DNA from: Candidatus Saccharimonadia bacterium
GTDB taxonomy: Bacteria > Patescibacteriota > SICC01
DNA: 64,000 nucleotides
Assembly (NCBI GenBank): GCA_025449535.1
Contig: JANWJF010000001.1
Location: forward strand, 421,136 to 485,135
Direction of reading: 5' to 3'
The notes beneath the pieces were generated by a model. That model was not told where the DNA came from. It made no database searches and was given only the letters and a program-made list of their open reading frames with translations. Shown here one piece after another: positions 22,220 to 43,141 of this stretch (its first letter is position 1; each line of letters starts with the position of its first letter). The position numbers and the translations under genes are program-made.

Positions 22220-22222
22220 GGA

Positions 22223-22809: not shown

Positions 22810-22823
22810 CAGCGCTCCCGCGA

Positions 22824-22967: not shown

Positions 22968-23123
22968 ACCCAGACAGTATACCCAACTTTGCCCGGCCGC
23001 TCCGGCATCTCCGCCCGGATGGCCGGACGCCGCCGATGCCGGCGTCGTGTATCCTGTGAATTGTCTGGTATCATTGCTAAGCCGACAGCAGAGACCGACC
23101 GCTGTCACATCCCAAACGCATCT

Positions 23124-24470
23124 ATGGACCCCAAAAAAATTTGGCAGGCCGTTCTTGGTGAACTTCAGGTGACGATGTCACGTCCTAACTTCTCGACATG
23201 GCTGAAGAACACGGAACTGCTGGATATCCGCGGCACCACCGCCCAGATTATGGTCCCGAGCGTCTTCGCCAAAGAGTGGCTGAAGCGCAAGTTCAACGAG
23301 GACATCCTCGCCGCCTTGCAAAAACAGGTCCCAGAGGTGGGCAAGCTCGACTTCCGGATCGGTCGGCCGCAGGAGACTCCGTCGAAGGGGGCCGCTCCCT
23401 CGGAAACGGACGACTTCGAACCCGCCCCGGCTCCCATGGCGAACGTCGCCAAGCCGACCCCCCAGGTCCGCTGCACGTTCGACAACTTCGTCGTCTCGAA
23501 CTCCAACCAGCTAGCCCACGCCGCGGCCAAGGCGGTCGCCCAGAACCCCGGCACCACCTACAACCCGTTGTTCATCTACGGACCGGTGGGGCTCGGCAAG
23601 ACCCATCTGATCCGGGCGATCGGCACGGAGATCCGCCACCGCACGGACAAGGAGGTCCTCTACGTCACCGCCGAGAAGTTCACCAACGAGGTGATCTCGG
23701 CGATCCAGGCCAATAAGACCGCCCGGCTCAAGAGCCGCTACCGCAAGGTAGACGTCCTGATGATCGACGACATCCAGTTCATGGCCGGCAAGGTCCAGAC
23801 CCAGGAGGAATTCTTCCATACGTTCAACGCGCTCCGCGACGCGGAGAAGCAGATCGTCCTGACCTCCGACCGTCCGCCGAAGGCGATCGCCACGCTCGAG
23901 GAGCGGCTGATGAGCCGCCTCACCATGGGCATGATCGCCGACCTCGGACCGCCGGAACTCGAGACGCGTATCGCGATCCTCCGCACCAAGGCCAAGGAAC
24001 GCGGCTACGACATCTCCGACGAGGTCTGCGAGTTCATCGCCAAGGCGTTCCAGCAGAACGTCCGCGAGCTCGAGGGCGCCTTGATTCGAGTGGCCGCCAA
24101 CGCCGAGCTGATCGGCGAGCCGCTGTCCGTGGAGCTGGCGGAACGCGTGCTCGGCTCGATGTTGGCCTCCCGCGAGCACAAGAAGATCTCCACCGACGAG
24201 GTGCTCGAGGCCGTGGCCAAGTTTTACGACGTCAGTGTGGACGACCTGAAGGGTCCGAAGCGGCTCAAGGAGATCGTCAAACCGCGTCAGATGGTGATGT
24301 ACCTCTTGCGCGAGGAGTCGAACCTGTCTTACCCGAAGATCGGCCGGGAGCTCGGCGGACGCGACCATACCACCGTCATCCACGCCGTCGGCAAGATCGG
24401 CACCGCTACCGAGGTCGACGAGCCGCTCCGCCGTGAGCTCAGCCTGATCAAAGAACGACTCTACGGATAA
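23124..24470 (+). CDS. dnaA: chromosomal replication initiator DnaA
   Basis: AAA+ box [10 protein letters not shown] and C-terminal DNA-binding domain. Start at MDPKKIW. Confidence 0.95.
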
Positions 24471-24738
24471 CCATGTTGAGAACCATGTGTATGACCTGGG
24501 AATCAGTTGTGTATCCCGGGTACGTTTCTGTGGGTGAATCCGAACCGATTCGGCACGTCAGGTTTGCCTCTGGATTATCGACGCGTCATCCACAGGGCGA
24601 TGGGGATGGCGATTCGTTATGATAGAGATACTTTCCGACGCTTTCCCCGTTTCCCCAGAACCTACTGCAACTACTGGATTTATATAAGAAAGGAATCACC
24701 CGGGATGTGCATAGCCTAATCTCGAACCGGCACTGTGT
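24471..24738. other. putative oriC (dnaA-dnaN intergenic region)
   Basis: TCATCCACA (1 mismatch to the TTATCCACA DnaA box) near 24587, plus weaker box-like TGTGGGTGA. Pronounced AT-rich stretch ctggatttatataagaaaggaat (about 24673-24697) in an otherwise 65% GC genome. Confidence 0.4.
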
Positions 24739-25830
24739 ATGAAACTCGTAACCACTCAAGACCAACTCGCCAAGGCCCTCAGCTCCGTCAGCCGGATGGT
24801 GAACCCACGCGGCACCCTGTCCGTGCTGGCCAACGTCCTGCTTGAGACCAAGGACGGCCGACTCCGGATCTCCTCCACCAACCTCGAACTGGGGATCGAC
24901 TACTCGATTGGGGCGAAGATCGAGCAGGGGGGGTCGATCACCGTTCCCGCCCGGTTGTTCACCGACTATGTGAACAACCTCGGCGAGGAGAAGCTTGAGC
25001 TGTCGACCAAGGACCAGACCCTGGTGATCAAGAGCACCGGCGCGCAGTCGACGATCAACGGCATCGCCGCCAGCGAATTCCCGGTGATCCCGGAAGTGAA
25101 GGACGGCAAGTCGGTCACCGTGTCCGCCGCCGGCATCAAGGACATCATCCAGAAGGTCGCGATCGCGGCCGCCAGCGACGAGACGCGGCCGATCCTCTCC
25201 GGCGTCCTCTTCCACTTCAAGGACCCGGAGCTCAAGGTCGCGGCCACCGACAGCTACCGGTTGGCGGAACTATCGATGCAATTCGAGAAGTCCGCGCCGG
25301 AGGAGCTCAAGGTCGTCGTACCGGCCAAGGCGCTGGCGGAGCTGGGACGCATCGTCGAGACGGAGGAAGTCACCGTCCGGACGGCCGAGAACCAGGTCCA
25401 GTTCGAGACCGAGCACGTCCGGCTGGTCAGCCGGCTGCTCGAAGGCGAGTTCCCCAAGTACGACCAGATCGTCCCCGAGAAGCTGACCACCAAGGCGGTC
25501 GTGAAGCGCGAGGAGTTGATGGGCAAGATCCGGATCGCCTCGCTGTTCTCCGAGGACGCGGGGTTCGGCGTACGGCTCTCGTTCGTCGCTCCCGGCAAGG
25601 TCGAGGTCGCCGCGGAGACGGCCCAGGTCGGCGATTCGCACAGTTCGCTGTCCGGCAAGGTCAGCGGCCCGGAGAACACCGTCGCGTTCAACGCGCGGTA
25701 CCTGCTGGACGGCCTCAATGCCGTCGGCGGCGAGACGATTACGGTCGAGAGCGATGGCAAGCTGAACCCCTGCGTGGTCCGCGGCAAGGCCAAGGATTAC
25801 CTCTACGTCGTGATGCCGCTGCGGGTGTGA
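24739..25830 (+). CDS. dnaN: DNA polymerase III beta sliding clamp
   Basis: Three-domain beta-clamp, 363 aa. Confidence 0.95.
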   Translation: MKLVTTQDQLAKALSSVSRMVNPRGTLSVLANVLLETKDGRLRISSTNLELGIDYSIGAKIEQGGSITVPARLFTDYVNNLGEEKLELSTKDQTLVIKSTGAQSTINGIAASEFPVIPEVKDGKSVTVSAAGIKDIIQKVAIAAASDETRPILSGVLFHFKDPELKVAATDSYRLAELSMQFEKSAPEELKVVVPAKALAELGRIVETEEVTVRTAENQVQFETEHVRLVSRLLEGEFPKYDQIVPEKLTTKAVVKREELMGKIRIASLFSEDAGFGVRLSFVAPGKVEVAAETAQVGDSHSSLSGKVSGPENTVAFNARYLLDGLNAVGGETITVESDGKLNPCVVRGKAKDYLYVVMPLRV

Positions 25831-25933
25831 GCGGACGCGGTAGACTGAGAGTATCGCGCTTACCCTCACCAAACTGACGCTCCGTAACTTCCGTAGTTAC
25901 CGGCAAGCGGCGTTCTCGTTCGCGCCGCGGACG

Positions 25934-26944
25934 GTGATCGTCGGACCCAACGCTGCCGGCAAGACCAACCTCCTGGAAGCGGCGTTCCTGTTCTCCGCCG
26001 GCAAAAGCTTCCGGGCCGGTCGGGAGTCGGAGATGGTGACCTGGGGGGAATCGACAGCCCGGGTGGAGGCCGCGTTCGCAGGCGGGTCCCGGCATAAGGC
26101 GGCTCTCACGCTGGACGCGTCCGGCCGGGTGATCAGGAAGTCGTTCGAGCTCGATGGCAAGGCCAAGCCGACCAAGGAGCTGCGGCGCCGGTTCCCGATG
26201 GTGCTCTTCTCGGCCGAGGACGGCCGGTTGGTGGACGGCTCGCCGGGCCGCCGCCGACGGGCGCTGGACCTGGTGGTCGGCCAGGGGTCGGCGGCCTACC
26301 AGGACGCGCTCTCGAAGTACAACCGGGCGTTGGCTTCCCGGAATCGGTTGCTCGAGCAGATCGCGGCGCGGGAGGCGTCCGAGGCCGAGCTCGACGTCTG
26401 GGACGTGCAGTTGGCCGAAGCCGGCACACAAGTGGTCGACGGGCGCGCGGAATACGTCGGTTCGTCCGCGGATCCGCTGCGGAACGCATACGACGCGTTG
26501 ACCAAGCGATCGGGCCACGCCGCCGGCCGGTTGTCGGTCGCCTACGAGCCGGTCGCGGACTTCGAGGCGCTACTGCGCTCCCGACGCGGCCAGGACATCG
26601 CCATCGGGACCACCTCCGCCGGCCCGCATCGCGACGACTGGTCGATCCTGCTCGACGGCCGGGCTTTGGCCTCGTTCGGGTCGGGCGGCGAGTTCCGGAG
26701 CGCCGCGCTGGCCTGGCGACTGGCGGAAGCGGCCTGGCTGGCGGCGGTCACGGAGCGGGAGCCGATCCTGCTGCTCGACGACGTCTTCTCCGAGCTTGAC
26801 CACGCCCGCGCGAAATCGCTCCAAGACGCCTTGCCGGACGGACAGTCGGTGATCACCACCCCGGAGCCGTCCGAGGTCCCTGGCGCCCTGCGCGAGGGGG
26901 CCGAGGTAATCGAGATAGAACCGAAGGAGCGGGTCGATGCGTAA
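25934..26944 (+). CDS. recF: DNA replication and repair protein RecF
   Basis: Walker A GPNAAGKTN, ABC signature and D-loop LLLDDVFSELD. Conserved N-terminal residues lie upstream with no canonical start; a GTG start is assumed here. Confidence 0.85.
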   Translation: MIVGPNAAGKTNLLEAAFLFSAGKSFRAGRESEMVTWGESTARVEAAFAGGSRHKAALTLDASGRVIRKSFELDGKAKPTKELRRRFPMVLFSAEDGRLVDGSPGRRRRALDLVVGQGSAAYQDALSKYNRALASRNRLLEQIAAREASEAELDVWDVQLAEAGTQVVDGRAEYVGSSADPLRNAYDALTKRSGHAAGRLSVAYEPVADFEALLRSRRGQDIAIGTTSAGPHRDDWSILLDGRALASFGSGGEFRSAALAWRLAEAAWLAAVTEREPILLLDDVFSELDHARAKSLQDALPDGQSVITTPEPSEVPGALREGAEVIEIEPKERVDA

Positions 26945-27275
26945 GGGAACGGGCTTCCGGACCGTCTCCGACCTGCTTCCCGACCGGCTCAACCGGCTGC
27001 GCATCCGTAAGCCCGTGGAGGCCAGCGCGGTTTGCCGCGCCTGCGACGCTGCGCTCGGCAAGACGTTCGACCACGGCGTGCCGATGCGGGCCGTCTCCTT
27101 CCGGAACGGCACGGTGAACGTGGCGGTGATCAGCCCGGCCTGGTCGCACGAACTGACCGCGGCTGCCGACGAGGTCATCGAGCATACCAACACGGAACTT
27201 GGAAAGAAGGCCGTGACGAAGCTCCGCACACGGGTGGCGCCAGGACTGGCCCGCGGCGAGGATCAGATCACTTAG
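26937..27275 (+). CDS. DUF721/DciA-like protein
   Basis: About 110 aa, canonical position after recF. 8-nt overlap with recF. Confidence 0.6.
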   Translation: MRKGTGFRTVSDLLPDRLNRLRIRKPVEASAVCRACDAALGKTFDHGVPMRAVSFRNGTVNVAVISPAWSHELTAAADEVIEHTNTELGKKAVTKLRTRVAPGLARGEDQIT

Positions 27276-27622
27276 AGCCGCTTGAACTGGTCGACGTCGA
27301 GCACGAAGACGGTCGCGCCGCCGACGGTCACGTCCACCGGGTCGGCCATATAGAAGTCGCCCGGCCCGCCCATGGTCGGAGTCGGGGCCAGCGTCTCCTC
27401 GTGGCTCCTGGCCGATTTGCCGACGATCTCGCAGACCTTCGCGACGTTCTTCGGTTCTGTGCCGACCAGGATGATCGCGTTCTTCTCCTTGAGGAACCCG
27501 CCGACCGAGTCGATCCGAGTCGCCCGGAAATCACCCTTGGTCAGCGCGGCGACGGTCTTCTCGGCGTCGTCCTTGCTGACGATCGCGAGCACGAGCTTCA
27601 TCTGCTTGCCGGCTGGACTCAT
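27272..27622 (-). CDS. darA: cyclic-di-AMP receptor DarA/PstA (PII-like, DUF970)
   Basis: Strong similarity to the YaaQ/PstA pattern: MKLVLAIV...FRATRIDSVGGFL...GGATVFVLDVDQF. Confidence 0.8.
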   Translation of the reverse strand: MSPAGKQMKLVLAIVSKDDAEKTVAALTKGDFRATRIDSVGGFLKEKNAIILVGTEPKNVAKVCEIVGKSARSHEETLAPTPTMGGPGDFYMADPVDVTVGGATVFVLDVDQFKRL

Positions 27623-27644
27623 GCCTCAAGGGTAGCAGAAGGGC

Positions 27645-28703
27645 TTACTTGGGGAAGTCTATGTGCCAATGCTGGGCACCCGGGCAGACTTCGTAATTGT
27701 TCGTGCCTCCGTATTTCTTGGCGACTTCGTGAATTTTTTCGATATTCCGGGTACTGCACGTGAGGTCCAAGGCCTCGCCGCGGTAATGCGGGGATTCCGC
27801 ACTAGAGTGGCACTTATCGGTGATGTTGCTGATGTCCACGTAGGCTCCTTGGTTCGATGCCTCGATGATCGCCTTGAGGATGTCCGGGTTGACGTCGACG
27901 TTCTTCGGGCCGCCATGTGCACGGCACGTCATCTGGAATTCCTGGCCGTTGGCAGCGCGCTTCAGCTGCGCCATCGTGTCGCCGGTGTCGCTCTTGTAGC
28001 TCTGGCCGATCTTGCCGCCCTTAATCAGGGAAAGGACCTGCTGAGCAAGCTCCTGGACGTTGCCGGATACCGTGCCTCCGCCGGCACCGGGACTGCAGTC
28101 GGCCCCTCTGGTAGTCGACCCCCCGCCTCCGGTGGCGGGGACGTGATGCTTCTCAGCATGCTTCATGACGTCGTCGGCGTAGCCGTACCCGGCAGCCTTT
28201 TTCGTCGGTCCGGCGTTGTATGAAGCCAGCGCGTCCCGCCAGTCGTTCTTCGCATTGAATCCCTTGAGGATCTTGGCGGCAGCGTAGATCGCGTCGGCTT
28301 CGTTCATGATGTCCTTCTTGCCGTCGCCGTCGCCGTCCACGCCATAGGTGTCCCAGTAATCCGAGCCGATGGCCATCGGCCCGACGTAGGGCCCGCTGGT
28401 GGCGACGTTCGTACTGAAGCTGGTCTCGTGGAAGTGGATGCCTGCCAGCATCGACGGTCCCTTGTCGCCAAGGCCGAACTGGGCGGCCGCCCCTTGGTAG
28501 AACGGGATGAACTTGCCTGGAATCGGACCAATGTTGCCTGGTCCGGTAGAACCGTCCCCAGTGTCGGCCACGGTGGACGTGTCGTCAGGGCCGCAGTCCG
28601 CGAGACCGCCGCCGCCGATCGCGAGCGCGAACGCAGCGATGATCAACGGGACGATCAGGACGATCCCCGCTACGAGCAGCCCGATGCCGATCCACTTACT
28701 CAT
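27645..28703 (-). CDS. membrane-anchored bifunctional cell-wall hydrolase (lytic transglycosylase-like N-domain + LAS/M15-type zinc peptidase C-domain)
   Basis: N-terminal TM. GIHFHETSF...YNAG SLT-like block. C-terminal SPHYRGEALD ... QHWH (H-x6-D ... H-x-H zinc ligands). Confidence 0.55.
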   Translation of the reverse strand: MSKWIGIGLLVAGIVLIVPLIIAAFALAIGGGGLADCGPDDTSTVADTGDGSTGPGNIGPIPGKFIPFYQGAAAQFGLGDKGPSMLAGIHFHETSFSTNVATSGPYVGPMAIGSDYWDTYGVDGDGDGKKDIMNEADAIYAAAKILKGFNAKNDWRDALASYNAGPTKKAAGYGYADDVMKHAEKHHVPATGGGGSTTRGADCSPGAGGGTVSGNVQELAQQVLSLIKGGKIGQSYKSDTGDTMAQLKRAANGQEFQMTCRAHGGPKNVDVNPDILKAIIEASNQGAYVDISNITDKCHSSAESPHYRGEALDLTCSTRNIEKIHEVAKKYGGTNNYEVCPGAQHWHIDFPK

Positions 28704-30984: not shown

Positions 30985-33021
30985 TTAGTTCCCTTCCGGC
31001 CGGAGGCCTGCGTTCTCAAGCTCCTCGAGCTGCTGCGGGTTGGTGGTGATGATCTGGTCCTCGGCGTAGCTCGCCAGGACCTTGATTGCCACGTGGTTCA
31101 GTCCGGCGAAGAACAAGCCCTCGCCGACCTCGCTCTCCAGGAGCAGCATCTTCTCGCCCTCGGTGAGGTTGAAGGTGTCGGCCACCAGGTCGATCGAGGC
31201 CGGGGACTGCCGGAGCAGCATCTGCATCGAGCTGTTGGTGACGATCGCCTTGCCGTAACTGGAGTTCAGGAAGTCCTCGACGTCCTGGGTGACGGTCGTC
31301 AGGCCGAGGTAGTACTTCCGGGCCCGCTTGGCCAGCGAGAACAGGAACTTGGCCGAGTCCTCGTGACCCATCATCTGCCAGGCCTCGTCGATCACCATCA
31401 GGCGTTTCTTGCGGTCCTTCCGGATCAGGTTCCAGATGTGATTGAGGATCATGTACATCGCGATCGGGCGGAGAGTGTCCTCCAGGTCGCGGATCGAGAA
31501 GGTCAGGAAGTGGTTGTCCAGCGAGACGTTCGACGGCTTGTTGAGCAATCCGGAGAACGAGCCAGTGACGTACTTCTGGAGCTTGGCCGCGACTCCCTCG
31601 GCGCCCTGCATGTTGTTGAGCACCTCGTGGAAGTCGGTCAGCGTCGGCGGCTGGTTCTTGTGGGTGGTCACGTCCGTGGTGATGTCACGCAGCGCGTACG
31701 TCTCCATCAGCGCGCGGTCGACCAGCGCGTCCTGCTCGGGGGCGAGCGAGCCGCACATCAGGGCCACCAAACCGTGCAGGTTGGTGATCGCGCTACGCAG
31801 GATCGCCTCGCCGTCCGTCTCGTCGCCGATGGCCGGCGGCAGGTCGAACGGGTTGATGTTGTGTTCCGAGCTCAGCGAGACGTTCACGTACCGGCCCCCG
31901 ACCGCGGCGGTCAGCGCCTGGTATTCATTCTCGGGGTCGATCACGATCGCCTCGGTGCCGAACATCAGCGAACGCAGCAGCTCCAGCTTCACGGCGTAGG
32001 ACTTGCCGCCGCCGGACTTGGCGAACATCACCATGTTGGCGTTCTCCAGCGTGAACCGGTCGAAGAGGATCAAGCCGTTGTTGTGCCGGTTGATGCCGTA
32101 GAGGATGCCGTCCGACTGGGTCAGCTCGGAGCTGGTGAACGGGAACGTGGTCGAGAGCGACTCGGTGTCCATGTTCCGGGTCACCCGGAGCTCGTCCGTA
32201 CCAGCGGGCAGCGAGCTGTTGAAGCCCTGCTCCATCTGGAGGTTGGCGTACTTGGTGAAGACGAGCTTCCCGTTCAGCGTCGACTCGAGCTGCTTGGTCA
32301 GCTTGTCCAGTTCGTCCTTCGACTTCGCGTACAACGTGAAGTAGAGGGCGTACTGGAAGAACTTCTCCTCACCGCGCTGCAGCCGGTCCCGCAGCTCCTC
32401 GGCGTCGCCGAGCGCGGTCTCCAGTTCCGGATCGCGGACCTTGCCCTTCTCGCGGTTGAGCTGCCAGGCGGATTCCATCTGGCCGACCTTCTTCCGGAGG
32501 TTCTGCATGACCTCCTTGGTCTCGACCGGGTAGATGAACATCGAGACGTCCATCGTCACGTCGTAGTTGATGATCGGGTTCAGCCAGTTCGTGTTGATGT
32601 AGCGCGGGTAGGTGAAGACGAACAGCGTCCGCACGAAGTAGTCCTCCAGCTTGAGGTAGTTGAAGGTAATCTCCATCGCGGCCGGCGCGATCAGGTCCTT
32701 GATCGTCGAGATGCCTTCCTCGTAGACGCGCTTGGCCTCCTCGAACTGCTTGGTCTGCACCTGCTGCTGGGAACGCTCCTCCGTGCCTTGCTTGTTCGAG
32801 CGCCAGGCGAAGAACTTCTCCAGGAACCCTTGCTTTGGCATGGCGACGGTCTGGGCTTGGGGCTGGACCTGTCCGATCGGCTGGGAGCCTTCGTACGAAC
32901 CTTCGCCGATCGTCGGGGCCTGGGGCGCGGCCGGCTGCGGTCCGGCCGGTGCCGGCGCGCCTTGCGGCGTCATCGGGTCCATCCCGCCCTGCGGTTGTCC
33001 TTGCGGATAGGCGTCAGGCAT
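30985..33021 (-). CDS. virB4: VirB4/TrbE/CagE-family T4SS ATPase (C-terminal ATPase part)
   Basis: Walker A KSGGGKSY, Walker B VIDEAWQ. P/Q-rich N-terminus. Confidence 0.85.
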   Translation of the reverse strand: MPDAYPQGQPQGGMDPMTPQGAPAPAGPQPAAPQAPTIGEGSYEGSQPIGQVQPQAQTVAMPKQGFLEKFFAWRSNKQGTEERSQQQVQTKQFEEAKRVYEEGISTIKDLIAPAAMEITFNYLKLEDYFVRTLFVFTYPRYINTNWLNPIINYDVTMDVSMFIYPVETKEVMQNLRKKVGQMESAWQLNREKGKVRDPELETALGDAEELRDRLQRGEEKFFQYALYFTLYAKSKDELDKLTKQLESTLNGKLVFTKYANLQMEQGFNSSLPAGTDELRVTRNMDTESLSTTFPFTSSELTQSDGILYGINRHNNGLILFDRFTLENANMVMFAKSGGGKSYAVKLELLRSLMFGTEAIVIDPENEYQALTAAVGGRYVNVSLSSEHNINPFDLPPAIGDETDGEAILRSAITNLHGLVALMCGSLAPEQDALVDRALMETYALRDITTDVTTHKNQPPTLTDFHEVLNNMQGAEGVAAKLQKYVTGSFSGLLNKPSNVSLDNHFLTFSIRDLEDTLRPIAMYMILNHIWNLIRKDRKKRLMVIDEAWQMMGHEDSAKFLFSLAKRARKYYLGLTTVTQDVEDFLNSSYGKAIVTNSSMQMLLRQSPASIDLVADTFNLTEGEKMLLLESEVGEGLFFAGLNHVAIKVLASYAEDQIITTNPQQLEELENAGLRPEGN

Positions 33022-33751
33022 CCTGTCCTCCCTGGGTTTCGGGCTCCTTGCCCGAGATGGTCGCCGCGGTCAGATCGTCGACGTTCACGAGCTTCTGCTT
33101 GGTGGCTGTCTGGGGGTTGTAGACGCTGTAGAAGAGCTCGACCAGTTCCTCCGAGTTGAGCTGGACCGCCCGGACCCCGATCGCGCCGAGCCCGGACGCG
33201 GCCCCTTCTGCGCGCTGCAGGAGCTGGCCGCGGAAGTTCTGGAAGTCCGCCTCGCGTTTGGCTGACTCGGCCTTGGGGTTCGGTTTGGTGGCGAACAACG
33301 ACTTGATGCCCTTCACCTGTTGCTCGACCCCAGGCGGGTAGAATGGCACCACCACATAGAACCGCTTGTCCATGATGTTGGTGACGGAGATCAGCCGCTT
33401 GATGAACTCGCCGTATTCGAGGGTCTGGAGCTTCACCAGTTCCAGTGTCTGGGATTCCGCGCGTTTGCTGAGCTTATCGAGGTAGTAATCCAGGTCCAGC
33501 CGTCGGGAGTGGATCAGGATCTGGATCGGGAAGTTCAGGGAGTTGAGGAACCGCTGGTAGGCGAAGATCATCGCGTCCTGTTCCTCTCCCGACTTCAGGG
33601 CGAAGTTCACGGCGCTGGTCATCAGCACGACCCGGAGCGAGCCGTCCTTGAGCACCACCACGCCGTCCTTGATCTCGGCGATATTCAGGTAGGCCTGCGT
33701 GGACGCAGCCTCCTGCTTCCTCTGCTGTTCCTGTTGTTTCTTGTCCGCCAT
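33014..33751 (-). CDS. VirB4 N-terminal domain protein (split VirB4)
   Basis: VLKDGSLRVVLMTSAVNFALKSGEEQDAMIFAYQRFLNSL resembles the VirB4 N-domain. ATG 1 nt after the prgI-like stop with an AGGGAG SD. 8-nt overlap with the ATPase ORF. Confidence 0.55.
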   Translation of the reverse strand: MADKKQQEQQRKQEAASTQAYLNIAEIKDGVVVLKDGSLRVVLMTSAVNFALKSGEEQDAMIFAYQRFLNSLNFPIQILIHSRRLDLDYYLDKLSKRAESQTLELVKLQTLEYGEFIKRLISVTNIMDKRFYVVVPFYPPGVEQQVKGIKSLFATKPNPKAESAKREADFQNFRGQLLQRAEGAASGLGAIGVRAVQLNSEELVELFYSVYNPQTATKQKLVNVDDLTAATISGKEPETQGGQDA

Positions 33752-33752
33752 G

Positions 33753-34382
33753 TCAGGCTCCCTGGGTCCGTTGCGGTTGCCGTTCGGATCCCTTGAGCAC
33801 CCGGTCAAGGTTGGCGCTGGCCCGGTCCGAACCGGTACCGGTGTCCTCCCGGGCGAGGATGTCCGCCGGCTCTTCCTCGTGGGCCATGAAGATGTTCAGG
33901 TGGGGTTTGGCCTGGGCGTCGCTGGTGACCCGCCCGGCCGTCTCCGGGTCGTCCTCATCGCTCCAGCCGCGGGCGTCGATCACGTGCGCCAGCTTGGCGA
34001 GCTTCGAACGGACCTCGTCGTCGCTGGGTTCGTCACGGACCACCTTCGGCGGCGCCTGGCGGTCTTCCAGCTTGATCTCGGCCAGCGTCGGCAGGCGCTT
34101 CCAGGCCCGCCGGGAAGGGCGGGTGGAGAAGCTCACGAACGAGGTGATGAACTTCAAGAACGGTTGGTCATACGGCTTTATGAACACGAACGCGGTCACG
34201 AACGTCCAGGTGAAGAAGGCGGTCACGAAGAAGGCCGCCTGGGAGACGGTGTAGACCGTGTTGAAGCTTACGAACGTGACCAAGCCGCCAGCCAGCAGGT
34301 AGAGGAACTGCTTGAGCGTGAACGGCCCGATGATCTTGTCCTCGAGCTCGACGTTCTGCGGGATCTTGTAGCTGGAAGCCAT
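33753..34382 (-). CDS. PrgI/VirB3-like T4SS membrane protein
   Basis: YKIPQNVELEDKIIGPFTLKQFLYL N-terminus and two TM helices, as in PrgI. Confidence 0.55.
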   Translation of the reverse strand: MASSYKIPQNVELEDKIIGPFTLKQFLYLLAGGLVTFVSFNTVYTVSQAAFFVTAFFTWTFVTAFVFIKPYDQPFLKFITSFVSFSTRPSRRAWKRLPTLAEIKLEDRQAPPKVVRDEPSDDEVRSKLAKLAHVIDARGWSDEDDPETAGRVTSDAQAKPHLNIFMAHEEEPADILAREDTGTGSDRASANLDRVLKGSERQPQRTQGA

Positions 34383-34461: not shown

Positions 34462-36906
34462 CTAGAGGCCCAACTGGGTGCGCAGGTGGTCCAGCTCGCT
34501 GTCGACCTCGTCGTAGGCCTGCGGCCCGCCGGCAAGCGGCACGAAGCCCTCGCGTTTGCCTTCCTTCATGCCCTGCAGGATGCGCAGGCGTTGCAGGCCG
34601 CCCTGCTGGTCGAAGGTGGACGCGATGGCCAGGCGCTTCGACTCCACCGCCACGTTCCGGTGGTTGAGGTTCATGTTCTGGCCCAGCGCCGTGGCGTTGG
34701 CCTGGTCACGCAGGGCTTGCCGCCAGACCTGCTGCCCGGCTCCTCCGGCGTCTATCGCGTGCAGCGGCGCCCCGTTCCGGGCATACTCCATCGAGCTGGC
34801 CATGATCTTGCGCATGCCGTCGCCGTCGCGGTTCTTCACGGCGATGCCCAGCTCGGTCCGGTCGAAGTCGCCGGCCTGGAGCGTGCCGCCGCGGTAGCTC
34901 TTCTTGACGCTGGCCAGGAGCGGATCGAGGTCAGCCATGTTCTTGTGGTAACCGGTGCGGGCGTACTTGGGCAGCATCTCCCAGTCGAACCAGCCCTGTT
35001 GGGACAGGCCTTTCACGGCGGCCAACGACCCGGTCCGGCTCTCCGCGAACCCTTGCTCGAGCGAGCTCAGCCGCAACGGTTCGCCGTCGAGCTCGGTCTT
35101 GCCCATGTCGGCGGCCACGATCCGGCGCATGGCGCCTTCGTCGATGCCCTGGTTCTGCATGTCCTTGAGTTCCTTGTCGACCAGCCGCTCACGGAATGAC
35201 TGGGCCTGGGTGGAGTCGAATCCGGTCAGCGAGCGTCCGACCCCGGCCACGCCGGCGTCCTCCAGCGCCTCGTAGAGGTCCGTACCGGCGCCCGCGGCGC
35301 GCAGCTGGGCCCGTTCTTCCTGACCTTCGGTGCGCTGCTTCAGGAAGGCGCGTCCGGTCCGGGCAGCCTCACCGACGGTCATGCCGCGGCCCAGCGGGAC
35401 CAGGCCGACCGCGCCGAGCCCGCCCTTACCGGCGCCTTTGCCGAGACGCGAGCCTTGCCGGCCGGCGAGCTGGGCGATTCGTCCGCCCATGCCGATGGGC
35501 ACCATCACTGCAGCGATGACGATGCCGGCGAAGAAGATCGCCTGCAGGATCGCGGAGCCGCCCGGGTCCCCGGTATCGGAACCTTCCAGGGTGGACCGCA
35601 GCATCAGCGAACCCGCGAAGAGTAGCAACATCGCGATCGGGGCCATGTAGACCCACTGGATCCAGTTCTTGAGCAGGTTGCGCGACTCACCCCGGGTCAG
35701 CGGTAGCACCAGGAACAGGAAGACCACCGGCGAGAGGATCGCCAGGACCCAGATCACGATGATCCGGACGACCAGGAAGAAGAGCAGGATGATCAGCGCG
35801 ACCAGGATGATCAGCGAGGCGAGCAGCAGCACTACCGCCTCGCCGAACCCGTCGACGAGCCCGTCCGAGTAGCCCGACCCGACCCCGGCCGCCTGTTGGA
35901 TGAAGTCATGAGACCGCTCCAGGAACGGTTGGCTGAGCACGGCGGCGGTGTTCGCCATGATGCTCGCGAACAGGAAGCTGAAGTTCACGCCGATCACCGA
36001 GAACACCAGCAGTGGCAGCAACGAGCGGATGTTGTACTTCTGCGGCTCCAACCGGAGGATCGACATGAAGGCCATCGTCGAGAGGACCAGGATGAACAGG
36101 ACGTTCACCAGGTCGCGGACCACCATCCAGACGTCGGCCACGCCTTGGTTGTCCATCAGCGTCCCGGCGTCCAGGGCCCATTCCACCGCCGAGGTCACGC
36201 TGCCGATCAGGCTGGTGATGATCTCGGCCATCTTCTCCAGCGCTTGCGAGAACGGGTCGCTGGCCGCCCGGTCGATCAGGCTGCTCTGGTTGGTGCTCGT
36301 CTGCACGTGTTCGCCCTTCTCGGCCCACTGCAAACCCTTGTCGTTGAGCAACTTGTCCAAGAAGTCCTTCGCGAACTCGGAACTGTCGAAGCTGTTCAGC
36401 TGGGCCACCAGGTTGTCGGGGACGGCGGCGTCGCCCGGGTCGCCCCAGACCAGCGCCGCGATCTTGGCGCCGTCGGTATTGATCCGGTAGATGACCTTCA
36501 GCGGCGTCTGGATTGGCGTGTCGCCGCGGTACGGCGAGAACGTGAAGTCCCAGTTGTCGAGACCGGTGCCCCGGTCCTCGTGGTGGACCGCCGTCAGCCG
36601 GAACTCGACCGCGCCCGGCGTGCCGGCGGTGCAGGTGGAGACGGTCTGCTCGCAGACGAAGACTGAGACCTTGTCGGGGTCCGCCTTGGTAGGGTCCTTC
36701 GGCGGCGGCGAAGGCCGCCAAGCGAACTTAGGCGCGTCGTTCCCGTCGATCTTGAAAGCCTCCCGCACATCGTCGGGTCCCTGGAATCCGTTCACTTGTG
36801 CCGCGCTGACCGCCTCGGCCTGCGGTGCGATGGCGAAGGATGCCGTCATGGCCAGGACGGCCAGTCCGGATTTCAATAATGTGAGTAAACGGTTCCGTTC
36901 GATCAT
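34462..36906 (-). CDS. VirB6/PrgH-like polytopic T4SS membrane protein (paralog B)
   Basis: Signal/TM, large extracytoplasmic N-domain, 5-7 TM core, Gly-rich tail. Start at the internal ATG (MIERNRLL); the ORF extends to 37011. Confidence 0.5.
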   Translation of the reverse strand: MIERNRLLTLLKSGLAVLAMTASFAIAPQAEAVSAAQVNGFQGPDDVREAFKIDGNDAPKFAWRPSPPPKDPTKADPDKVSVFVCEQTVSTCTAGTPGAVEFRLTAVHHEDRGTGLDNWDFTFSPYRGDTPIQTPLKVIYRINTDGAKIAALVWGDPGDAAVPDNLVAQLNSFDSSEFAKDFLDKLLNDKGLQWAEKGEHVQTSTNQSSLIDRAASDPFSQALEKMAEIITSLIGSVTSAVEWALDAGTLMDNQGVADVWMVVRDLVNVLFILVLSTMAFMSILRLEPQKYNIRSLLPLLVFSVIGVNFSFLFASIMANTAAVLSQPFLERSHDFIQQAAGVGSGYSDGLVDGFGEAVVLLLASLIILVALIILLFFLVVRIIVIWVLAILSPVVFLFLVLPLTRGESRNLLKNWIQWVYMAPIAMLLLFAGSLMLRSTLEGSDTGDPGGSAILQAIFFAGIVIAAVMVPIGMGGRIAQLAGRQGSRLGKGAGKGGLGAVGLVPLGRGMTVGEAARTGRAFLKQRTEGQEERAQLRAAGAGTDLYEALEDAGVAGVGRSLTGFDSTQAQSFRERLVDKELKDMQNQGIDEGAMRRIVAADMGKTELDGEPLRLSSLEQGFAESRTGSLAAVKGLSQQGWFDWEMLPKYARTGYHKNMADLDPLLASVKKSYRGGTLQAGDFDRTELGIAVKNRDGDGMRKIMASSMEYARNGAPLHAIDAGGAGQQVWRQALRDQANATALGQNMNLNHRNVAVESKRLAIASTFDQQGGLQRLRILQGMKEGKREGFVPLAGGPQAYDEVDSELDHLRTQLGL

Positions 36907-37007
36907 TTTCGTGCAGTGCTCATTGGATTGATTACGCCTCTTCGGTGCGGTCACGCAGTTTGAAAAGGAACGCCCCCTGCGTCCTTTCCGCGTGCGCCCC
37001 CGAACAC

Positions 37008-37039
37008 CCAAAAAGCGCTCAATTATGACCTAATTGAGC
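37008..37039 (-). terminator. putative intrinsic terminator after the VirB6-like paralog A
   Basis: Perfect 9-bp stem GCTCAATTA/TAATTGAGC with a 5-nt loop. Followed on the minus strand by GCUUUUUGGG. Confidence 0.45.
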
Positions 37040-37066
37040 GGACAGGTCAAGTGGGGGGTCGATTTG

Positions 37067-39661
37067 TCAGATACCCCGTATGTCGTCCGAATCCGGTGCG
37101 TCTTTGGTTCGACGGCCTTCCGGAAGGACGACGCCGCCCGAGCTGGTTCCCGAAGTTCTCGACCCTCCTGTCCCACTGCCGCTTCCGCCGCCAGAGCCTC
37201 TGGAGGAGTAGTCTTCTCCGGCGTGAGACGGATTGGCAATCAGCGTATCCCACATCGGTCCGTGCTTGTCGCTTAGGCTATCAATAGTTTTTGTGGGGAT
37301 CTTGCCGTTGTCGTAAGCTTTTCGCAACGCTTGGACACGCGCCGGTGAATTTTGCTCCAATATACCTTCCACGGCACCGACGGACAGGTTGTCCCGTAAG
37401 AGATTAGCTCGATTCGGATCTTTCGTAGTGGCCAAGTCAGTAAGGACTTCCGGGCTGAATTGCGTGACGTTTCTGCTGCCAAGGTCCTGAATTTCGCGCT
37501 GTTGCGCTGCCAGCGGTTTCTTAGCGAAGTTGGCGGTCTCGTTGGCCAACTGCTCACCCTTGCGCCGTTCCGCGAAGGCGCCGGTGCGGATGTCGTGAGC
37601 GAGTCCCAGGGTGTCGTGCATCTTCGAGTTCGGTTGGAATTGCCCCTGCATCCGTTCCAGTTCGTCGGTGTCGAACTGATCGGCGTAAAGCTGAGCTTCC
37701 TTTTCCTGGGCGGTGCTCATCTGTGCAGCGGCCTCAGCCCCGGCTTCGCCGCCAAGCCGGCCGCCGGTAGCCGCGGACAAGCGCTTGTTGAACCCGGACC
37801 GGATACCGGCGCCGCGCAACGCCTGTTTGCGCTCGGCGCGCTGCTTGCGCTGATCGTTGGCGGCGGCCAGTCCGGATTTGCGAGCAGCTACCCCACCGAG
37901 TCCCTTGCCGGCTCCGAGTCCGGTCCGACCGGTCTTCTTCGCCGCACTGGCGGCCCGTCCCATCACTTCGCCGCCGAGTTTCAGCGGAATCATCACCGCG
38001 GCGATCAAGGCGCCGACGAAAAAGGCGATCTTAAGCAGGAAGTCTGGCCCGTTGATGTCTTGGTTTTTCGATCCGACGTTTGAAACAATCTCCGCCGCGA
38101 CAAACAGCAGCATGAACGCGACGGGAGCCATGAAGATCCACTTCATCGCGTTCTTCCACCATGATGACGCCAAGGAGCGTGTAAAAGGGAGGATCATGAA
38201 CAGGAAGACAAACGGCGAGAGCGCGGTGAGCAGCCAGATCATCAGTATCCGGACGACGAGGAAGATGAACAGAATCAGCATCGCGATGGCGACCACGATT
38301 ACCATGAGGACGGCGATGACGACCTGCCCGATGCCGGACTGGGGATCGATGATGCTGCCGTCCACCGGTGGGTTCGCCAACAGGCCGAACGCCTTTGACG
38401 CGAACGGCTGTGCGATGATGAAAGCGACGTTGGTCAGGATCTGCACCAGCACGAAGCTGAAGTTCACCGCGATTACCCCGAAGATCAGGCGCGGGAGCAA
38501 GGCCCTGATCCCGTAGCGGTCGGTATCGATGCGCAGGATGTTCGACAGGGCGACTATGCAGAGAATCAGAATGAATATTACGTTTACGAAGTCACGGATG
38601 GTCTTCCACGCTTCGACCAGGCCCTGGTTGTCGGTGAGGGTCCCGACGTCGGTCACGTTCAGCAGGGCACGTTTCACGAAGTCGAAGAAGTCACTGATCG
38701 CGACCTTCAACGCTTCCAAGGCCTTTTGCATGGCCTGCGCGAAGAAGTCGTGGTCGCTAGTGCAGCGGTTGATGCCATTGAACTTCTCGGCGACTTCGTC
38801 AATCGTCTCCTGGTCATCCGCCTGGTCGGTCAGTTCCACCCCGTTGAAGTACTTTTCCTCGTCGAGGCCGCCCGACCATTCGATGTCCGAAGCCCAGGCA
38901 TCTTCCGCGAACGTGCCGGCGCAACTCGCCGTGAACGAGAAGTGCATCTCGTCGGAGCCGAACGCATCGTTGCCGGAAGAGAACCGACCATTGTTCGCCT
39001 TGAGCGAGACGTTGAGCGCCGGGTTGAATTCGTTCCGGAAGACATAAATGATGTTCTCGTCGTTACCGCCGCCGCCGAATGGCGTGTTCTCCTGGACGTC
39101 GCCGGTGGAGTTGTTGTGGATGTCGGTCAGCACGAACCGGACCAGGTGGACGTCGTCGTGACCGACCGCGGTCCCCTCACCGTTCGGGTTGTGAATCAGG
39201 TGCTTGCTGTGGACGTAAAAGTACGGGTTGCCGTCGTACTTCGAACCGATGGAGGCGTTCCCGCGTGCCCGGAAGTCGGAAGGTTCGCCATCCTGCCCGG
39301 CGTTGATATCCAGCTTGCTGATTCCGCCGGGGTCGCCCTCGTTCGACTCACCGAAGAACGCGAGTTGAGCTTCCTTCCGGCTCCCGATCGCGTTCATCGC
39401 CCGCTTGACCCCTTCCCAACGCTCCTGTTCCTTGTTGTCTTCCTGTATCTGATCCGTCTCGTCCCCGATCATCGCGAAGCACTCCTCCTCTTCGGGAGTC
39501 AGTTCCACAGGTGGGAGGTGTTGCATGTCCTCAAAAGGGTACTTGTCCTTGCACTCCTGGAGGGTAATCGCGTATGCCGGCTGGATGGCCGGGCCGACCA
39601 TGGTCGCGAGGAAGGCGGCGGCCAGGAAAGTGGAAATCAACCGCTTGATCCGCTTGTTCAT
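37067..39661 (-). CDS. VirB6/PrgH-like polytopic T4SS membrane protein (paralog A)
   Basis: Signal peptide MNKRIKRLISTFLAAAFLATMVGPAIQPAYA. TM core closely similar to paralog B. C-terminal Gly/Ser-rich region. Confidence 0.5.
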   Translation of the reverse strand: MNKRIKRLISTFLAAAFLATMVGPAIQPAYAITLQECKDKYPFEDMQHLPPVELTPEEEECFAMIGDETDQIQEDNKEQERWEGVKRAMNAIGSRKEAQLAFFGESNEGDPGGISKLDINAGQDGEPSDFRARGNASIGSKYDGNPYFYVHSKHLIHNPNGEGTAVGHDDVHLVRFVLTDIHNNSTGDVQENTPFGGGGNDENIIYVFRNEFNPALNVSLKANNGRFSSGNDAFGSDEMHFSFTASCAGTFAEDAWASDIEWSGGLDEEKYFNGVELTDQADDQETIDEVAEKFNGINRCTSDHDFFAQAMQKALEALKVAISDFFDFVKRALLNVTDVGTLTDNQGLVEAWKTIRDFVNVIFILILCIVALSNILRIDTDRYGIRALLPRLIFGVIAVNFSFVLVQILTNVAFIIAQPFASKAFGLLANPPVDGSIIDPQSGIGQVVIAVLMVIVVAIAMLILFIFLVVRILMIWLLTALSPFVFLFMILPFTRSLASSWWKNAMKWIFMAPVAFMLLFVAAEIVSNVGSKNQDINGPDFLLKIAFFVGALIAAVMIPLKLGGEVMGRAASAAKKTGRTGLGAGKGLGGVAARKSGLAAANDQRKQRAERKQALRGAGIRSGFNKRLSAATGGRLGGEAGAEAAAQMSTAQEKEAQLYADQFDTDELERMQGQFQPNSKMHDTLGLAHDIRTGAFAERRKGEQLANETANFAKKPLAAQQREIQDLGSRNVTQFSPEVLTDLATTKDPNRANLLRDNLSVGAVEGILEQNSPARVQALRKAYDNGKIPTKTIDSLSDKHGPMWDTLIANPSHAGEDYSSRGSGGGSGSGTGGSRTSGTSSGGVVLPEGRRTKDAPDSDDIRGI

Positions 39662-41034: not shown

Positions 41035-41063
41035 ACCATAGCAGAAAACAAGCCAAATGTCAA
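41035..41063 (-). promoter_or_regulatory. putative sigma70-type promoter for the 474-aa gene / VirB6-A unit
   Basis: Minus strand: TTGACA (41063-41058), 17 nt, TATGGT (41040-41035). Confidence 0.4.
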
Positions 41064-41080: not shown

Positions 41081-41107
41081 AAAAAGCGTCCTCGAGGAAC
41101 GCTTTTT
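41081..41107. terminator. putative bidirectional intrinsic terminator downstream of the pilin genes
   Basis: AAAAAGCGTCCtcgaGGAACGCTTTTT: GC stem flanked by an A-run and a T-run. Confidence 0.45.
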
Positions 41108-41130: not shown

Positions 41131-41514
41131 CTAGACGTCGAACCGGCCACGGACGCCCAGGTAGTCCTGGATCAGCCGCGTGAGCACGAACGCGATGAAG
41201 ATGACAATCAAACCGAGCACCGCGTACAGGATGGTCTTCCGGGCGGCGTCGACCTGTTCGGCGTTGCCGGTGGAGACCACGTAGCGGAAGCCGCCGATGA
41301 TCAGGAAGAGCACGGCGATGGCGCCGGCGAACAGCAGCAGCGCGTCGATGACCCGGGACAGGATCTCGCCGAAGTCAGTCTGGTTGGTCGGAGACTCGAT
41401 GTCCGGCTTGATGTTGGTCGGGGCTTGCGCCGCGGCGACCGCGTTCTTGGCCATGACCAGCGACAGCGCCGCGCCGTAACCGACACGGGATAGCGTTTGC
41501 TTCACTTTTTGCAT
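41131..41514 (-). CDS. TrbC/VirB2-like T4SS pilin
   Basis: Signal peptide plus two hydrophobic helices flanking a GxRY...GN.E.V..A+ loop. Confidence 0.5.
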   Translation of the reverse strand: MQKVKQTLSRVGYGAALSLVMAKNAVAAAQAPTNIKPDIESPTNQTDFGEILSRVIDALLLFAGAIAVLFLIIGGFRYVVSTGNAEQVDAARKTILYAVLGLIVIFIAFVLTRLIQDYLGVRGRFDV

Positions 41515-41532
41515 ATGTGTTTCACCTCCTTC

Positions 41533-42183
41533 CTATACGGTTACCACTCTACCAATGGTCACTACGATGGCATAGGAAAGGAACACGACGGCCAGGCCGA
41601 TCACGGAGTAGAGCAGGCCGCGCCGGGCCGCCTGGACCTGGTCCTGGTTGCCTTGCGAGGTCGCGTACCGGTAGCCGTTGATGATGATGAAGAGCACGGC
41701 GACCGAGGCGCTTAACAGCAGCAGCGCGTCGGCGATGCGCGGCAGGATGCTCTGCGGGTCCTGCGGCGCGCCGCTGATCGCCCCGACGATGCCGGGCGCG
41801 TCGCTGATCTTCTGCCGTGAACGGAGCACGCCTTGGACCAACAGGACGATCGCGTACGAGCAGATCGTCAGGATGAAGCCGGCGATCGACCAGGTCAGGC
41901 CCTGCTTGGCCTTCTCGACCTTCTCCGGGTTGCCGGCCGAGAAGATGTATTGGTAGCCGTTGACGACGACGAAGAGTACGGCGACCGAGGCCGCGAAGAG
42001 CAGTCCGAAGCGAATGATGTTCACCAGTATCCCGACCACGCCGCCGAGGTCTGAGGCGCGCGGGTTCTCGGGAATCTGGAAGAAGCCGAGCGCGGCGTGC
42101 GCGGACTCCGGTGCGACCAGGATGCCGATCGCGGCGAGGACGCCGAGGCCGAGCGCGAATTGTCTGAGGGAACGCATGTTCAT
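41533..42183 (-). CDS. tandem double VirB2-like pilin
   Basis: Two internal repeats, AVLFVVVNGYQYIFSAGNPEKVEKAKQGL and AVLFIIINGYRYATSQGNQDQVQAARRGL, each flanked by hydrophobic helices. Confidence 0.5.
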   Translation of the reverse strand: MNMRSLRQFALGLGVLAAIGILVAPESAHAALGFFQIPENPRASDLGGVVGILVNIIRFGLLFAASVAVLFVVVNGYQYIFSAGNPEKVEKAKQGLTWSIAGFILTICSYAIVLLVQGVLRSRQKISDAPGIVGAISGAPQDPQSILPRIADALLLLSASVAVLFIIINGYRYATSQGNQDQVQAARRGLLYSVIGLAVVFLSYAIVVTIGRVVTV

Positions 42184-42542
42184 AATCCCGAGTTAAATCC
42201 CAGCGTGCGCGAGACCAGGATGATCAACGTGACGGAGACGAGCGAGACCACGAACCCGAACACCGCGTAGAGCAGGCTCTTCTTGGCCTTCTCGACGAGT
42301 TCCTGGTTGCCCTGGGAGACCATGTATCGGTAGCCGGAGATGATCAGATAGAGCAGCGCCACTGTCGGCAGGAAGACGATCAGGATGTTGAAGATCGCGC
42401 TGACCGGTTCGCCGAGGTTGCCGAACCCGGACAGCGAGTGGATCTCCCGGGGGTTCTTGTCCGGCTGCGGCAGGGCGGCCTGGGCACCGGCCGGAACGGC
42501 CAGCGAGAGGAGCAGCAGCGAGTTGGCGATCCGTCTAATCAT
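42180..42542 (-). CDS. TrbC/VirB2-like T4SS pilin
   Basis: Signal peptide; ISGYRYMVSQGNQELVEKAKKSLLYAV motif. Confidence 0.5.
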   Translation of the reverse strand: MIRRIANSLLLLSLAVPAGAQAALPQPDKNPREIHSLSGFGNLGEPVSAIFNILIVFLPTVALLYLIISGYRYMVSQGNQELVEKAKKSLLYAVFGFVVSLVSVTLIILVSRTLGFNSGL

Positions 42543-43070
42543 TCAGCCTCCGGGTTTCGAGAAGTCGATGTCTCCGCAGCCGGGCTCGTTCTTCTCGCAG
42601 GGCTCGCTGACCGTCCGCGGGTTGATCGTGTTCAGGATCAACGCTGCCAGGATCAGGAGCGACAGGCCGATCAGCGTCTTCTCGACGATGTCCTTGGCGT
42701 TGGAGATCTTCTCGGGATCGCCATAGCTGGCCATGTAGGTGTAGCCGGCGTAGATCAGGGAGATCACCGACAGCAGCCCGCCGATGAAGGCGACCCAGAG
42801 GTACACCGCGTTGACGTATTGGATCACCGAGGTCTTCTTTACCTCAGTGCCGGTGACCGGGTCGATGTTCGAGCCGCTGGTGTCGAGGCCGTTCTTATCC
42901 GTGTCTTGCTTGCCCTTCTTCTGCTTGGTCTTGCCGCCACTGACGTCCTTGGCGTCGTCGACGCCCTGCTTCGTCTCCGCGGCCTTCGCCATCGGAGCGT
43001 CCACCGTGAAGTGCGGACCCACCGGCGTTATCGCGACCGCGGTCGCGACGCCCAATCCGAGCGCCGCCAT
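42543..43070 (-). CDS. VirB2-like pilin with extended Lys-rich N-region and Cys-containing tail
   Basis: IYAGYTYMASYGDPEKISNAKDIVEKTLIGL motif. Start at MAALGL, preceded by an AGGAGG SD; the longer ORF extends to 43103. Confidence 0.45.
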   Translation of the reverse strand: MAALGLGVATAVAITPVGPHFTVDAPMAKAAETKQGVDDAKDVSGGKTKQKKGKQDTDKNGLDTSGSNIDPVTGTEVKKTSVIQYVNAVYLWVAFIGGLLSVISLIYAGYTYMASYGDPEKISNAKDIVEKTLIGLSLLILAALILNTINPRTVSEPCEKNEPGCGDIDFSKPGG

Positions 43071-43112
43071 GGTCAACCTCCTGATTGTCGTTCCGGTTCG
43101 CATAAGGGGGCT

Positions 43113-43141
43113 ATCATACGGCTAGAAAACGTCTCTGTAAA
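43113..43141 (-). promoter_or_regulatory. putative strong promoter of the pilin gene array
   Basis: Minus strand: TTTACA, 17 nt, TATGAT, within the 41-bp gap before the first pilin gene. Confidence 0.4.

Follow-up and report, generated by a model that had tools for sequence, protein, structure and literature searches.

The window analysed here is a 64,000-nucleotide (nt) stretch of contig JANWJF010000001.1 from Candidatus Saccharimonadia bacterium (assembly GCA_025449535.1, positions 421,136 to 485,135), and it contains an array of four adjacent minus-strand genes (41131-43103) that together encode five VirB2-like pilin domains, two of them fused in one protein. Judged from family matches, the products are almost certainly pilin-like proteins of the VirB2/TrbC superfamily. 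The five domains are old, positionally conserved and not hypervariable, being no more variable than the neighbouring genes. The array belongs to a chromosomal, origin-proximal, monoderm-type type IV secretion system (T4SS) characteristic of Saccharibacteria and other Patescibacteria, and we consider it reasonably probable that its five domains are VirB2-like subunits of this Patescibacteria T4SS which are non-redundant and co-assemble.

Family, architecture and expression of the pilin genes

All four array genes exceeded the gathering cut-off (26.6 bits) of the Pfam hidden Markov model (HMM) PF18895, T4SS_pilin (scores in Table 1). The TrbC/VirB2 family PF04956 was matched by 15 of the 27 aligned orthologues of the fused gene (E <= 0.01; best E = 2e-11), and the call of VirB2/TrbC-like pilins made by an earlier, sequence-only reading of this DNA is upheld by both families. 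The NCBIfam model NF045849 (Mbov_0395 family, pilin-like proteins of Mycoplasma integrative and conjugative elements; cut-off 40) gave 25.2, 31.5, 42.4 and 35.5 bits for genes 1 to 4, the cut-off being exceeded by the two-domain protein alone, through summing of both domains. The relationship to NF045849 therefore looks distant rather than that of an equivalog. In IMG, an identical protein is labelled ‘type IV secretory pathway VirB2 component (pilin)’.

Each domain consists of a signal peptide or linker, a transmembrane (TM) helix, an S-x-G-N turn with basic flanks and a second TM helix. The two hydrophobic helices of every domain, about 20-30 residues each, were seen in the hydropathy profiles, as had been read from the letters. 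A hydrophobic signal-like N-terminal segment was found in three of the four proteins; the earlier claim of a signal peptide in each gene holds for these three, whereas the segment of the 127-amino-acid (aa) protein fell below the cut-off used. The signal-like segments are followed by predicted cleavage motifs of the AxA type (AQA|AL, AHA|AL, AQA|PT and VDA|PM). The combination of a predicted signal peptide, two TM helices, a short charged loop and predicted same-side termini is a VirB2-like architecture. The loop reads G-[YF]-x-Y-x-x-S-x-G-[ND]-x-[ED]-x-[VI]-x-x-A-[KR] in all five domains, a motif taken by eye from the five-domain alignment; a regular expression for the loop charge gave no match. 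The conserved loop first described is thus present throughout, but its Arg occurs in three of the five domains, and its Glu and its Val in four of the five each. Within the array the domains share 19-45% identity, the highest value being that between the two halves of the fused protein, and the paralogue DNA is 60-73% identical over 110 nt. Because five domains match one curated HMM and the paralogue DNA retains this identity, the pattern is not due to chance.

It is hardly conceivable that these genes encode unrelated tandem two-TM proteins, such as holins, Flp-type pilins or other membrane peptides. Structure searches with the two-TM hairpins did not discriminate between candidate families, the hairpin being a simple fold, and weak sub-threshold matches to unrelated TM families occur. 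On the other hand, five domains pass a curated pilin HMM, homologues reach TrbC/VirB2, synteny with VirB6, VirB3 and VirB4 is conserved across genomes, and no phage or lysis genes are adjacent to the array. Family matches and synteny effectively refute a holin, Flp or phage identity.

The genes are tightly packed: the stop codon of gene 1 is immediately followed by the ATG of gene 2, an ATGA overlap (42180-42183) joins genes 2 and 3, and 18 nt separate genes 3 and 4. The proposed promoter TTTACA-17-TATGAT was found by the promoter scan, and alignment showed that its hexamers and spacing are kept in six orthologous loci with otherwise diverged flanks. The block of conservation at the promoter runs past the -10 box: TATGATAGCTCCCTTA (43095-43141, minus strand). 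The hairpin noted after the array was borne out as well. Its 61-nt region folds with -23 kcal/mol (z = -3.8 against shuffles); folding was needed because a simple consensus terminator scan did not call the hairpin at 41081-41107. A second promoter-like site stands before the downstream T4SS genes (Table 1). Since the array has its own promoter, a terminal hairpin and a second promoter-like site after the hairpin, it looks like a transcription unit of its own, with predicted termination.

Gene 1 is promoter-proximal and hence the first to be transcribed. The Lys-rich N-region (GGKTKQKKGKQDTDKNG) and the C-x6-C tail (CEKNEPGC), which had been assigned to the fourth gene of the array, are real, but the gene that carries them comes first in transcription order. 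The start of this gene had been placed at 43070, a site preceded by AGGAGG and picked by the gene callers. The orthologues favour another position: the start is most likely 43103, because the orthologues begin with M-[IR]-T/I and have the basic n-region that a signal peptide needs. The ATG lies 9 nt past the -10 box in the window and in the related locus L008, and about 21 nt past it in L002, L004 and L005. With the ATG at 43103 only 9 nt past the -10 box, the mRNA of the first pilin is predicted to be leaderless or near-leaderless. The N-extension is of low complexity, and its length and composition vary strongly between orthologues. The tail NTINPRT..PC....GCGDIDF..PGG (42543-42620, minus strand), on the other hand, is almost invariant among them, which suggests a specific disulfide-stabilised interaction surface. 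From its basic N-extension and disulfide-capable tail, the gene 1 product is a candidate surface-exposed or tip/minor subunit.

Conservation of the paralogues and of the fused pilin

Thirty-seven fetched related loci (numbered with the prefix L), with relatives coming from metagenome-assembled genomes (MAGs) of Ca. Saccharibacteria or Patescibacteria, were scanned with an HMM built from the five window domains. Arrays were found among the fetched loci, in answer to the question of presence or absence that the sequence-only reading had raised, and each array seen whole comprised four to eight pilin genes. In close relatives the array consists of four genes with five domains. Tandem arrays of five, six or eight separate pilin genes are found in Doudnabacteria, in Saccharibacteria at a greater distance and elsewhere in Patescibacteria; among the sampled arrays, a domain count of five is the commonest. 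In GCA_040902515.1, a relative at 66% identity, the genes from GroEL to VirB4 stand in the same order, and the pilins of the array measure 157, 122, 213 and 121 aa.

The five domains of the window are collinear 1:1 orthologues of those in L002, L004, L005, L008 and L009, with 48-89% identity as compared with the 19-45% between paralogues. Over whole genes, the window and L002 share 64-76% identity in the pilins, 65% in the solute-binding protein, 68% in Hsp20, 69% in PrgI, 44-45% in the VirB6 genes and 91% in both VirB4 and GroEL. The gene 4 orthologues are 66-75% identical in L002 and L004. In a neighbour-joining tree of 94 domains (no support values), grouping follows largely array position rather than genome, including in Doudnabacteria; the gene 1 domain falls in a position-1 clade that covers the sampled phylum-level diversity.

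These data bear on antigenic diversification, which had been offered as one explanation of the array. In such a scheme, the paralogues would be interchangeable alternative major pilins, used for evasion of host defence or for different host strains. The high divergence of the paralogues within the array and the strong differences in the gene 1 N-extension would suit it, and the analogy with Bartonella and Anaplasma has been raised for Patescibacteria arrays (PMC12102498). However, a single conserved promoter serves all four genes with no sign of switching; neither long near-identical repeats for gene conversion nor inverted repeats resembling invertible elements were found within the array; each paralogue has a collinear orthologue whose identity is similar to that of neighbouring housekeeping-type genes; and the domains cluster by position in the tree. 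Members of the array of Ca. Southlakia epibionticum were scored essential (Wang et al. 2023, PMC10633639), and a permanent covalent fusion of paralogues is hard to square with either/or usage. Antigenic or host-range variation is thus distinctly unlikely, while a heteropolymeric fibre or functional diversification, the other suggestions made earlier, are still viable and would be favoured by the conserved fusion.

The fused protein (gene 3) contains the two complete domains that had been claimed for it, as its two PF18895 stretches show: a signal peptide is followed by domain A (about residues 41-125), a linker of about 25 residues and domain B (about 133-216). An AlphaFold2 model of the 216-aa protein (27-sequence alignment; mean predicted local distance difference test score, pLDDT, 72.5) has two long helical hairpins (H46-81/H86-119 and H143-175/H180-214) with a low-confidence linker between them, and the hairpin turns are four residues each, AGNP and SQGN, flanked by R/K. 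The two-domain pilin, about 205-225 aa long, is conserved at identities as low as 41% in at least 37 protein clusters. Its domains differ in signature: domain A has NGYQYILSAGNPEK.EKAK.GLTW, and domain B has GGYRY.TSQGNQD.VE.AKKTILY. Because outgroups have separate genes, the fusion is derived and old.

An exhaustive profile search matched 62,249 representative proteins at E <= 1e-3. The best 150 of these contain 2-10 pilin domains per polypeptide (for example eight in 820 aa and six in 552 aa), a list biased toward multi-domain proteins by the two-domain query. Poly-pilins with three to about ten tandem PF18895-like domains include P0047, P0049, P0117 and others, as well as L039:1777-3435 and L038:7016-9014. 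P0049 has several neighbouring domains that are nearly identical, which points to a recent internal duplication. The two poly-pilins checked at the DNA level, those of L038 and L039, are uninterrupted open reading frames (ORFs) under table 11 and lie inside pilin arrays; concatenation of pilins is therefore recurrent and not peculiar to this genome. An artefact of an alternative genetic code was ruled out for the window gene, L038 and L039, all three being uninterrupted under table 11. Neither the conserved fusion nor poly-pilins in general seem to have been described before; they are a modest detail, but one that favours heteromeric assembly.

Could the 216-aa product instead be a polyprotein, whose linker is cleaved after insertion to release two single-domain pilins, the fusion being a matter of translational coupling or genome compaction? 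The second TM helix of domain A is oriented N-in/C-out, like a signal anchor. No other part of the protein is as poorly conserved or modelled with so little confidence as the linker, which has small-residue motifs (AISGA|PQD). Array neighbours already abut or overlap, so that loss of one stop codon could yield a fusion. Yet signal peptidase I does not typically cut as far as about 20 residues past the hydrophobic core, where the candidate cleavage motif lies, and the linker has no conserved AxA motif over the 27 orthologues. Moreover, homologues as little as 41% identical still have the fusion, and pilins with many more fused domains have arisen repeatedly and independently. We regard the polyprotein explanation as unlikely.

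Pilin domains also occur in another setting. In L028-L037 (for example L032:5821-11883) and at L038:9056-13930, giant proteins of 600 to more than 2100 aa begin with an N-terminal T4SS_pilin domain, after which follow immunoglobulin-like (Ig-like), TIG, Fn3 or PKD repeats. They come from other Patescibacteria MAGs, two of them labelled Gammaproteobacteria. The pilin module of these proteins looks as if it anchored adhesin-like extracellular regions in the membrane or a pilus.

Proposed assembly and comparison with known systems

We propose that the array encodes VirB2-like membrane/pilus subunits of the chromosomal T4SS. The pilins would be exported by Sec and inserted into the membrane so that both termini face outward and the loop lies inside; they would then be pulled from this membrane pool and stacked on a VirB6 platform to give a tube or short pilus, a mechanism modelled on proposals for Gram-negative VirB2 and for PrgF of pCF10. 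The five paralogous domains would be non-redundant and would assemble together rather than act as interchangeable variants. We favour non-redundant co-assembly because the paralogues are individually conserved, because the S. epibionticum series is reported to be essential and because the covalent C-to-N tether is conserved; the retention of the conserved loop residues in all five domains is a further point in its favour. In the fused protein, the extracellular linker would join domain A, at its C-terminus, to the N-terminal end of domain B. Such a tether makes steric sense only for domains that are neighbours in the assembly, so that the two would be present there at a fixed 1:1 stoichiometry. 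In Gram-negative pilins the N- and C-termini are adjacent on the outer face, and T-pilin, TrbC and TrhA undergo head-to-tail cyclisation. With pilin termini so placed, a short extracellular linker between neighbouring subunits would be sterically plausible. To judge from S. epibionticum, the machine is probably required for host-dependent growth and not for conjugation.

A further step would be a VirB2-type tube of fixed stoichiometry and heteromeric composition on the VirB6 platform; if real, it would be the first pilus or conduit of the conjugative type to be heteropolymeric. For such a tube, covalent pilin-pilin fusions would be ‘Rosetta-stone’ evidence that the paralogues are neighbours in the polymer, and five as the commonest domain count allows the speculation that each layer is five-fold with one paralogue per protomer. 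We put this forward tentatively and think it on balance doubtful.

The subunits could also be VirB2-like and build no pilus, forming a hetero-oligomeric membrane ring or channel lining around VirB6, VirB3 and VirB4 with no fibre past the thin envelope. A VirB2-type filament has not so far been visualised on Patescibacteria or any Gram-positive bacterium; the cells attach to their hosts by other pili, so that a short conduit may suffice, and fusions of up to about ten domains are easily pictured as multi-pass membrane proteins. Nevertheless, the family is homologous to the pilus-forming TrbC/VirB2, and the conserved charged turn and the predicted topology with both termini out fit pilins. Labelling results for PrgF indicate that the loop is externally accessible in a Gram-positive system, and the giant Ig/Fn3/PKD regions attached to pilin domains in relatives suggest surface display. 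A role confined to the membrane is, in our estimate, rather unlikely.

Several observations weigh against co-assembly of VirB2-like subunits as proposed here. None of the four window proteins reached the threshold of PF04956 (27.9 bits), the best score being 17.9 bits for the 120-aa protein; with the matches among orthologues, this result indicates relatedness at the level of the superfamily rather than family membership of the window proteins. A search of PDB sequences with the profile of the fused-pilin family gave no match at E <= 10. Best-hit orthology outside the immediate clade, in loci at 30-45% identity, is neither collinear nor resolvable, and the domain tree has no support values. 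There is no direct evidence of an extracellular filament of any PF18895 protein, and the filaments so far resolved on a cultivated member of Saccharimonadia are Ig-fold Pam pili, type IV pili being the other known appendage. Cleavage of the fused protein after export could weaken the stoichiometry argument, and the published array sizes, which range from 2 to 11 (PMC12102498), do not imply any one fixed architecture. A preprint on a ‘novel pilus system in CPR’ was set aside, as it concerns the unrelated Ig-fold Pam pili.

The sequence-only reading had contrasted the array with a single VirB2 gene as the norm for T4SSs. This contrast is valid for classical systems, but published work shows multi-pilin arrays to be the rule in Patescibacteria (PMC12102498, PMC10633639, PMC12857230), as they were among the related loci scanned here. 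A survey found 441 arrays of 2-11 pilin genes in 383 Patescibacteria assemblies, with about 25% mean identity and a maximum of 54%; the arrays are enriched in Saccharimonadia and Microgenomatia, and the T4SS lies near dnaA (PMC12102498, Quinonero-Coronel et al. 2025). The window fits these arrays in its tandem genes near virB4, in their identity and in its proximity to dnaA. The survey counts genes, without mention of fused pilins, positional orthology or promoter conservation.

In Ca. Southlakia epibionticum ML1, a series of six pilin genes, SEML1_0014-0019, was called essential by transposon sequencing; SEML1_0014-0016, 0018 and 0019 are annotated as PF18895, 0017-0019 were scored essential among the table rows consulted, Hsp20 is the next gene, and no relaxase or coupling protein was recognised in the cluster (Wang et al. 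2023, PMC10633639). The two loci share tandem PF18895 genes beside a monoderm-type T4SS (PrgI, VirB4, VirB6-like protein and cell-wall hydrolase) near the chromosome start, a nearby Hsp20 gene and a pilin array that is its own transcription unit. They differ in that S. epibionticum has six separate single-domain genes, apparently divergent from the core genes, whereas the window has four genes with five domains and one fusion, co-directional with the core genes, and a lineage-specific gene for a 450-aa protein between pilins and VirB6.

PrgF, the VirB2-like protein of Enterococcus pCF10, is essential and has been modelled as stacking on a VirB6 pentamer (bioRxiv 10.64898/2025.12.18.695078). 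The array proteins resemble it in architecture, the level at which they were compared, being small two-TM proteins with a short charged loop encoded near VirB6, as PrgF is in a T4SS of the MPF-FATA type. PrgF systems, by contrast, are conjugative, with a relaxase and a coupling protein, and one functional VirB2-like gene was found per plasmid. With Gram-negative VirB2/TrbC/TraA (PF04956) the array proteins share a signal peptide, two hydrophobic helices, a basic loop and termini that are both outside (predicted here), while in the Gram-negative systems there is a single pilin gene, the envelope is diderm and contains a VirB7/9/10 core, and VirB5 often forms the tip. Anaplasma and Bartonella likewise have several divergent tandem virB2 copies, which are interpreted as antigenic variation in intracellular animal pathogens. 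Unlike these, the window has ancient, positionally conserved paralogues, one promoter and one fusion, and the array shows no sign of rapidly diversifying interchangeable copies or of recombination of that type.

The surrounding locus and the meaning of the array

The features of the locus are collected in Table 1. The tandem pilin genes stand near virB4 together with PrgI/VirB3, VirB6 and TrsD/TraC-like genes, in a chromosomal, origin-proximal location of a Patescibacteria genome. Past VirB4 come several small ORFs and the SLT transglycosylase, beyond which are recF (+), dnaN (+), dnaA (+) and yidC (-); the stretch from yidC to the SLT gene spans 21377-28703, with dnaA/dnaN/recF at 22881-26944. 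Because the T4SS locus abuts yidC, dnaA, dnaN and recF, it is origin-proximal, and the minimum of the cumulative GC skew is at about 28-30 kb. Upstream of the array are genes for a solute-binding protein, a nucleotidyl transferase, MgsA, Hsp20 and GroEL. Neither a relaxase nor a coupling protein was found among the ORFs scanned at 19-54 kb, the part of the window and genome that was searched.

Table 1. Features of the pilin array and of the adjoining T4SS genes, in window positions.
Feature	Positions	Strand	Remarks
Sigma-70-like array promoter	43113..43141	-	TTTACA, 17-nt spacer, TATGAT; 10/12 matches in promoter scan
Pilin gene 1	42543..43103	-	186 aa (175 aa with start at 43070); PF18895 35.3 bits, one T4SS_pilin domain; predicted signal peptide and extracellular Lys-rich N-extension, C-terminal C-x6-C tail
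Pilin gene 2	42180..42542	-	120 aa; PF18895 33.8 bits, one T4SS_pilin domain, two TM helices
Pilin gene 3	41533..42183	-	216 aa, fused double pilin; PF18895 73.0 bits, two stretches
Pilin gene 4	41131..41514	-	127 aa; PF18895 39.7 bits, one T4SS_pilin domain
Terminator-like hairpin	41081..41107	-	inverted repeat; 13-bp stem, then U-run UUUUUGGUUU
Second promoter-like site	41035..41063	-	TTGACA, 17 nt, TG-n-TATGGT; 10/12 matches and TG extension (extended -10)
Highly charged coiled-coil protein, 450 aa	39658..41010	-	C-terminal TM segment and basic tail; no Pfam above cut-off
VirB6/TrbL-like polytopic protein, 864 aa	37067..39661	-	PF04610 31 bits; PF19590 TrbL_3
Second VirB6/TrbL-like protein, 849 aa	34462..37011	-	PF04610 21 bits, below cut-off; L002 orthologue has PF19590
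PrgI family (VirB3-like) protein	33753..34382	-	PF12666 35.2 bits
TraC-like/TrsD-like protein before VirB4	33014..33808	-	no Pfam match itself; 79%-identical L002 orthologue has PF26593
VirB4-type ATPase, 678 aa	30985..33021	-	PF19044 87.9 bits, AAA_10; 91% identical to L002 orthologue
SLT lytic transglycosylase, VirB1-like candidate	27645..28703	-	PF13406 and PF01464 above cut-off; distal locus end

The gene for the 450-aa protein, which separates the pilins from the two VirB6 genes, is an insertion specific to this lineage. The sole homologue found of the protein is in L006, 29% identical and in the same position; none was found in L002, L004 or L009, where VirB6 comes directly after the pilins. 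The tandem paralogous VirB6/TrbL-like genes (34462-39661) are the fastest-evolving part of the locus, as the comparison with L002 above shows, with VirB4 at the conserved end.

The locus adds no new kind of system: a published hallmark is recognised here in an unstudied MAG, and what is new is the conserved two-domain fused pilin, as a small added clue. To our knowledge, no T4SS other than that of Patescibacteria has been shown to be essential for the growth of its owner, and the multi-pilin array is one of the features that separate this T4SS from other monoderm systems. Positional conservation, the lack of hypervariability and conserved fusions of two to about ten domains bear on why these bacteria have so many pilins, and together they argue for obligate co-assembly rather than antigenic variation.

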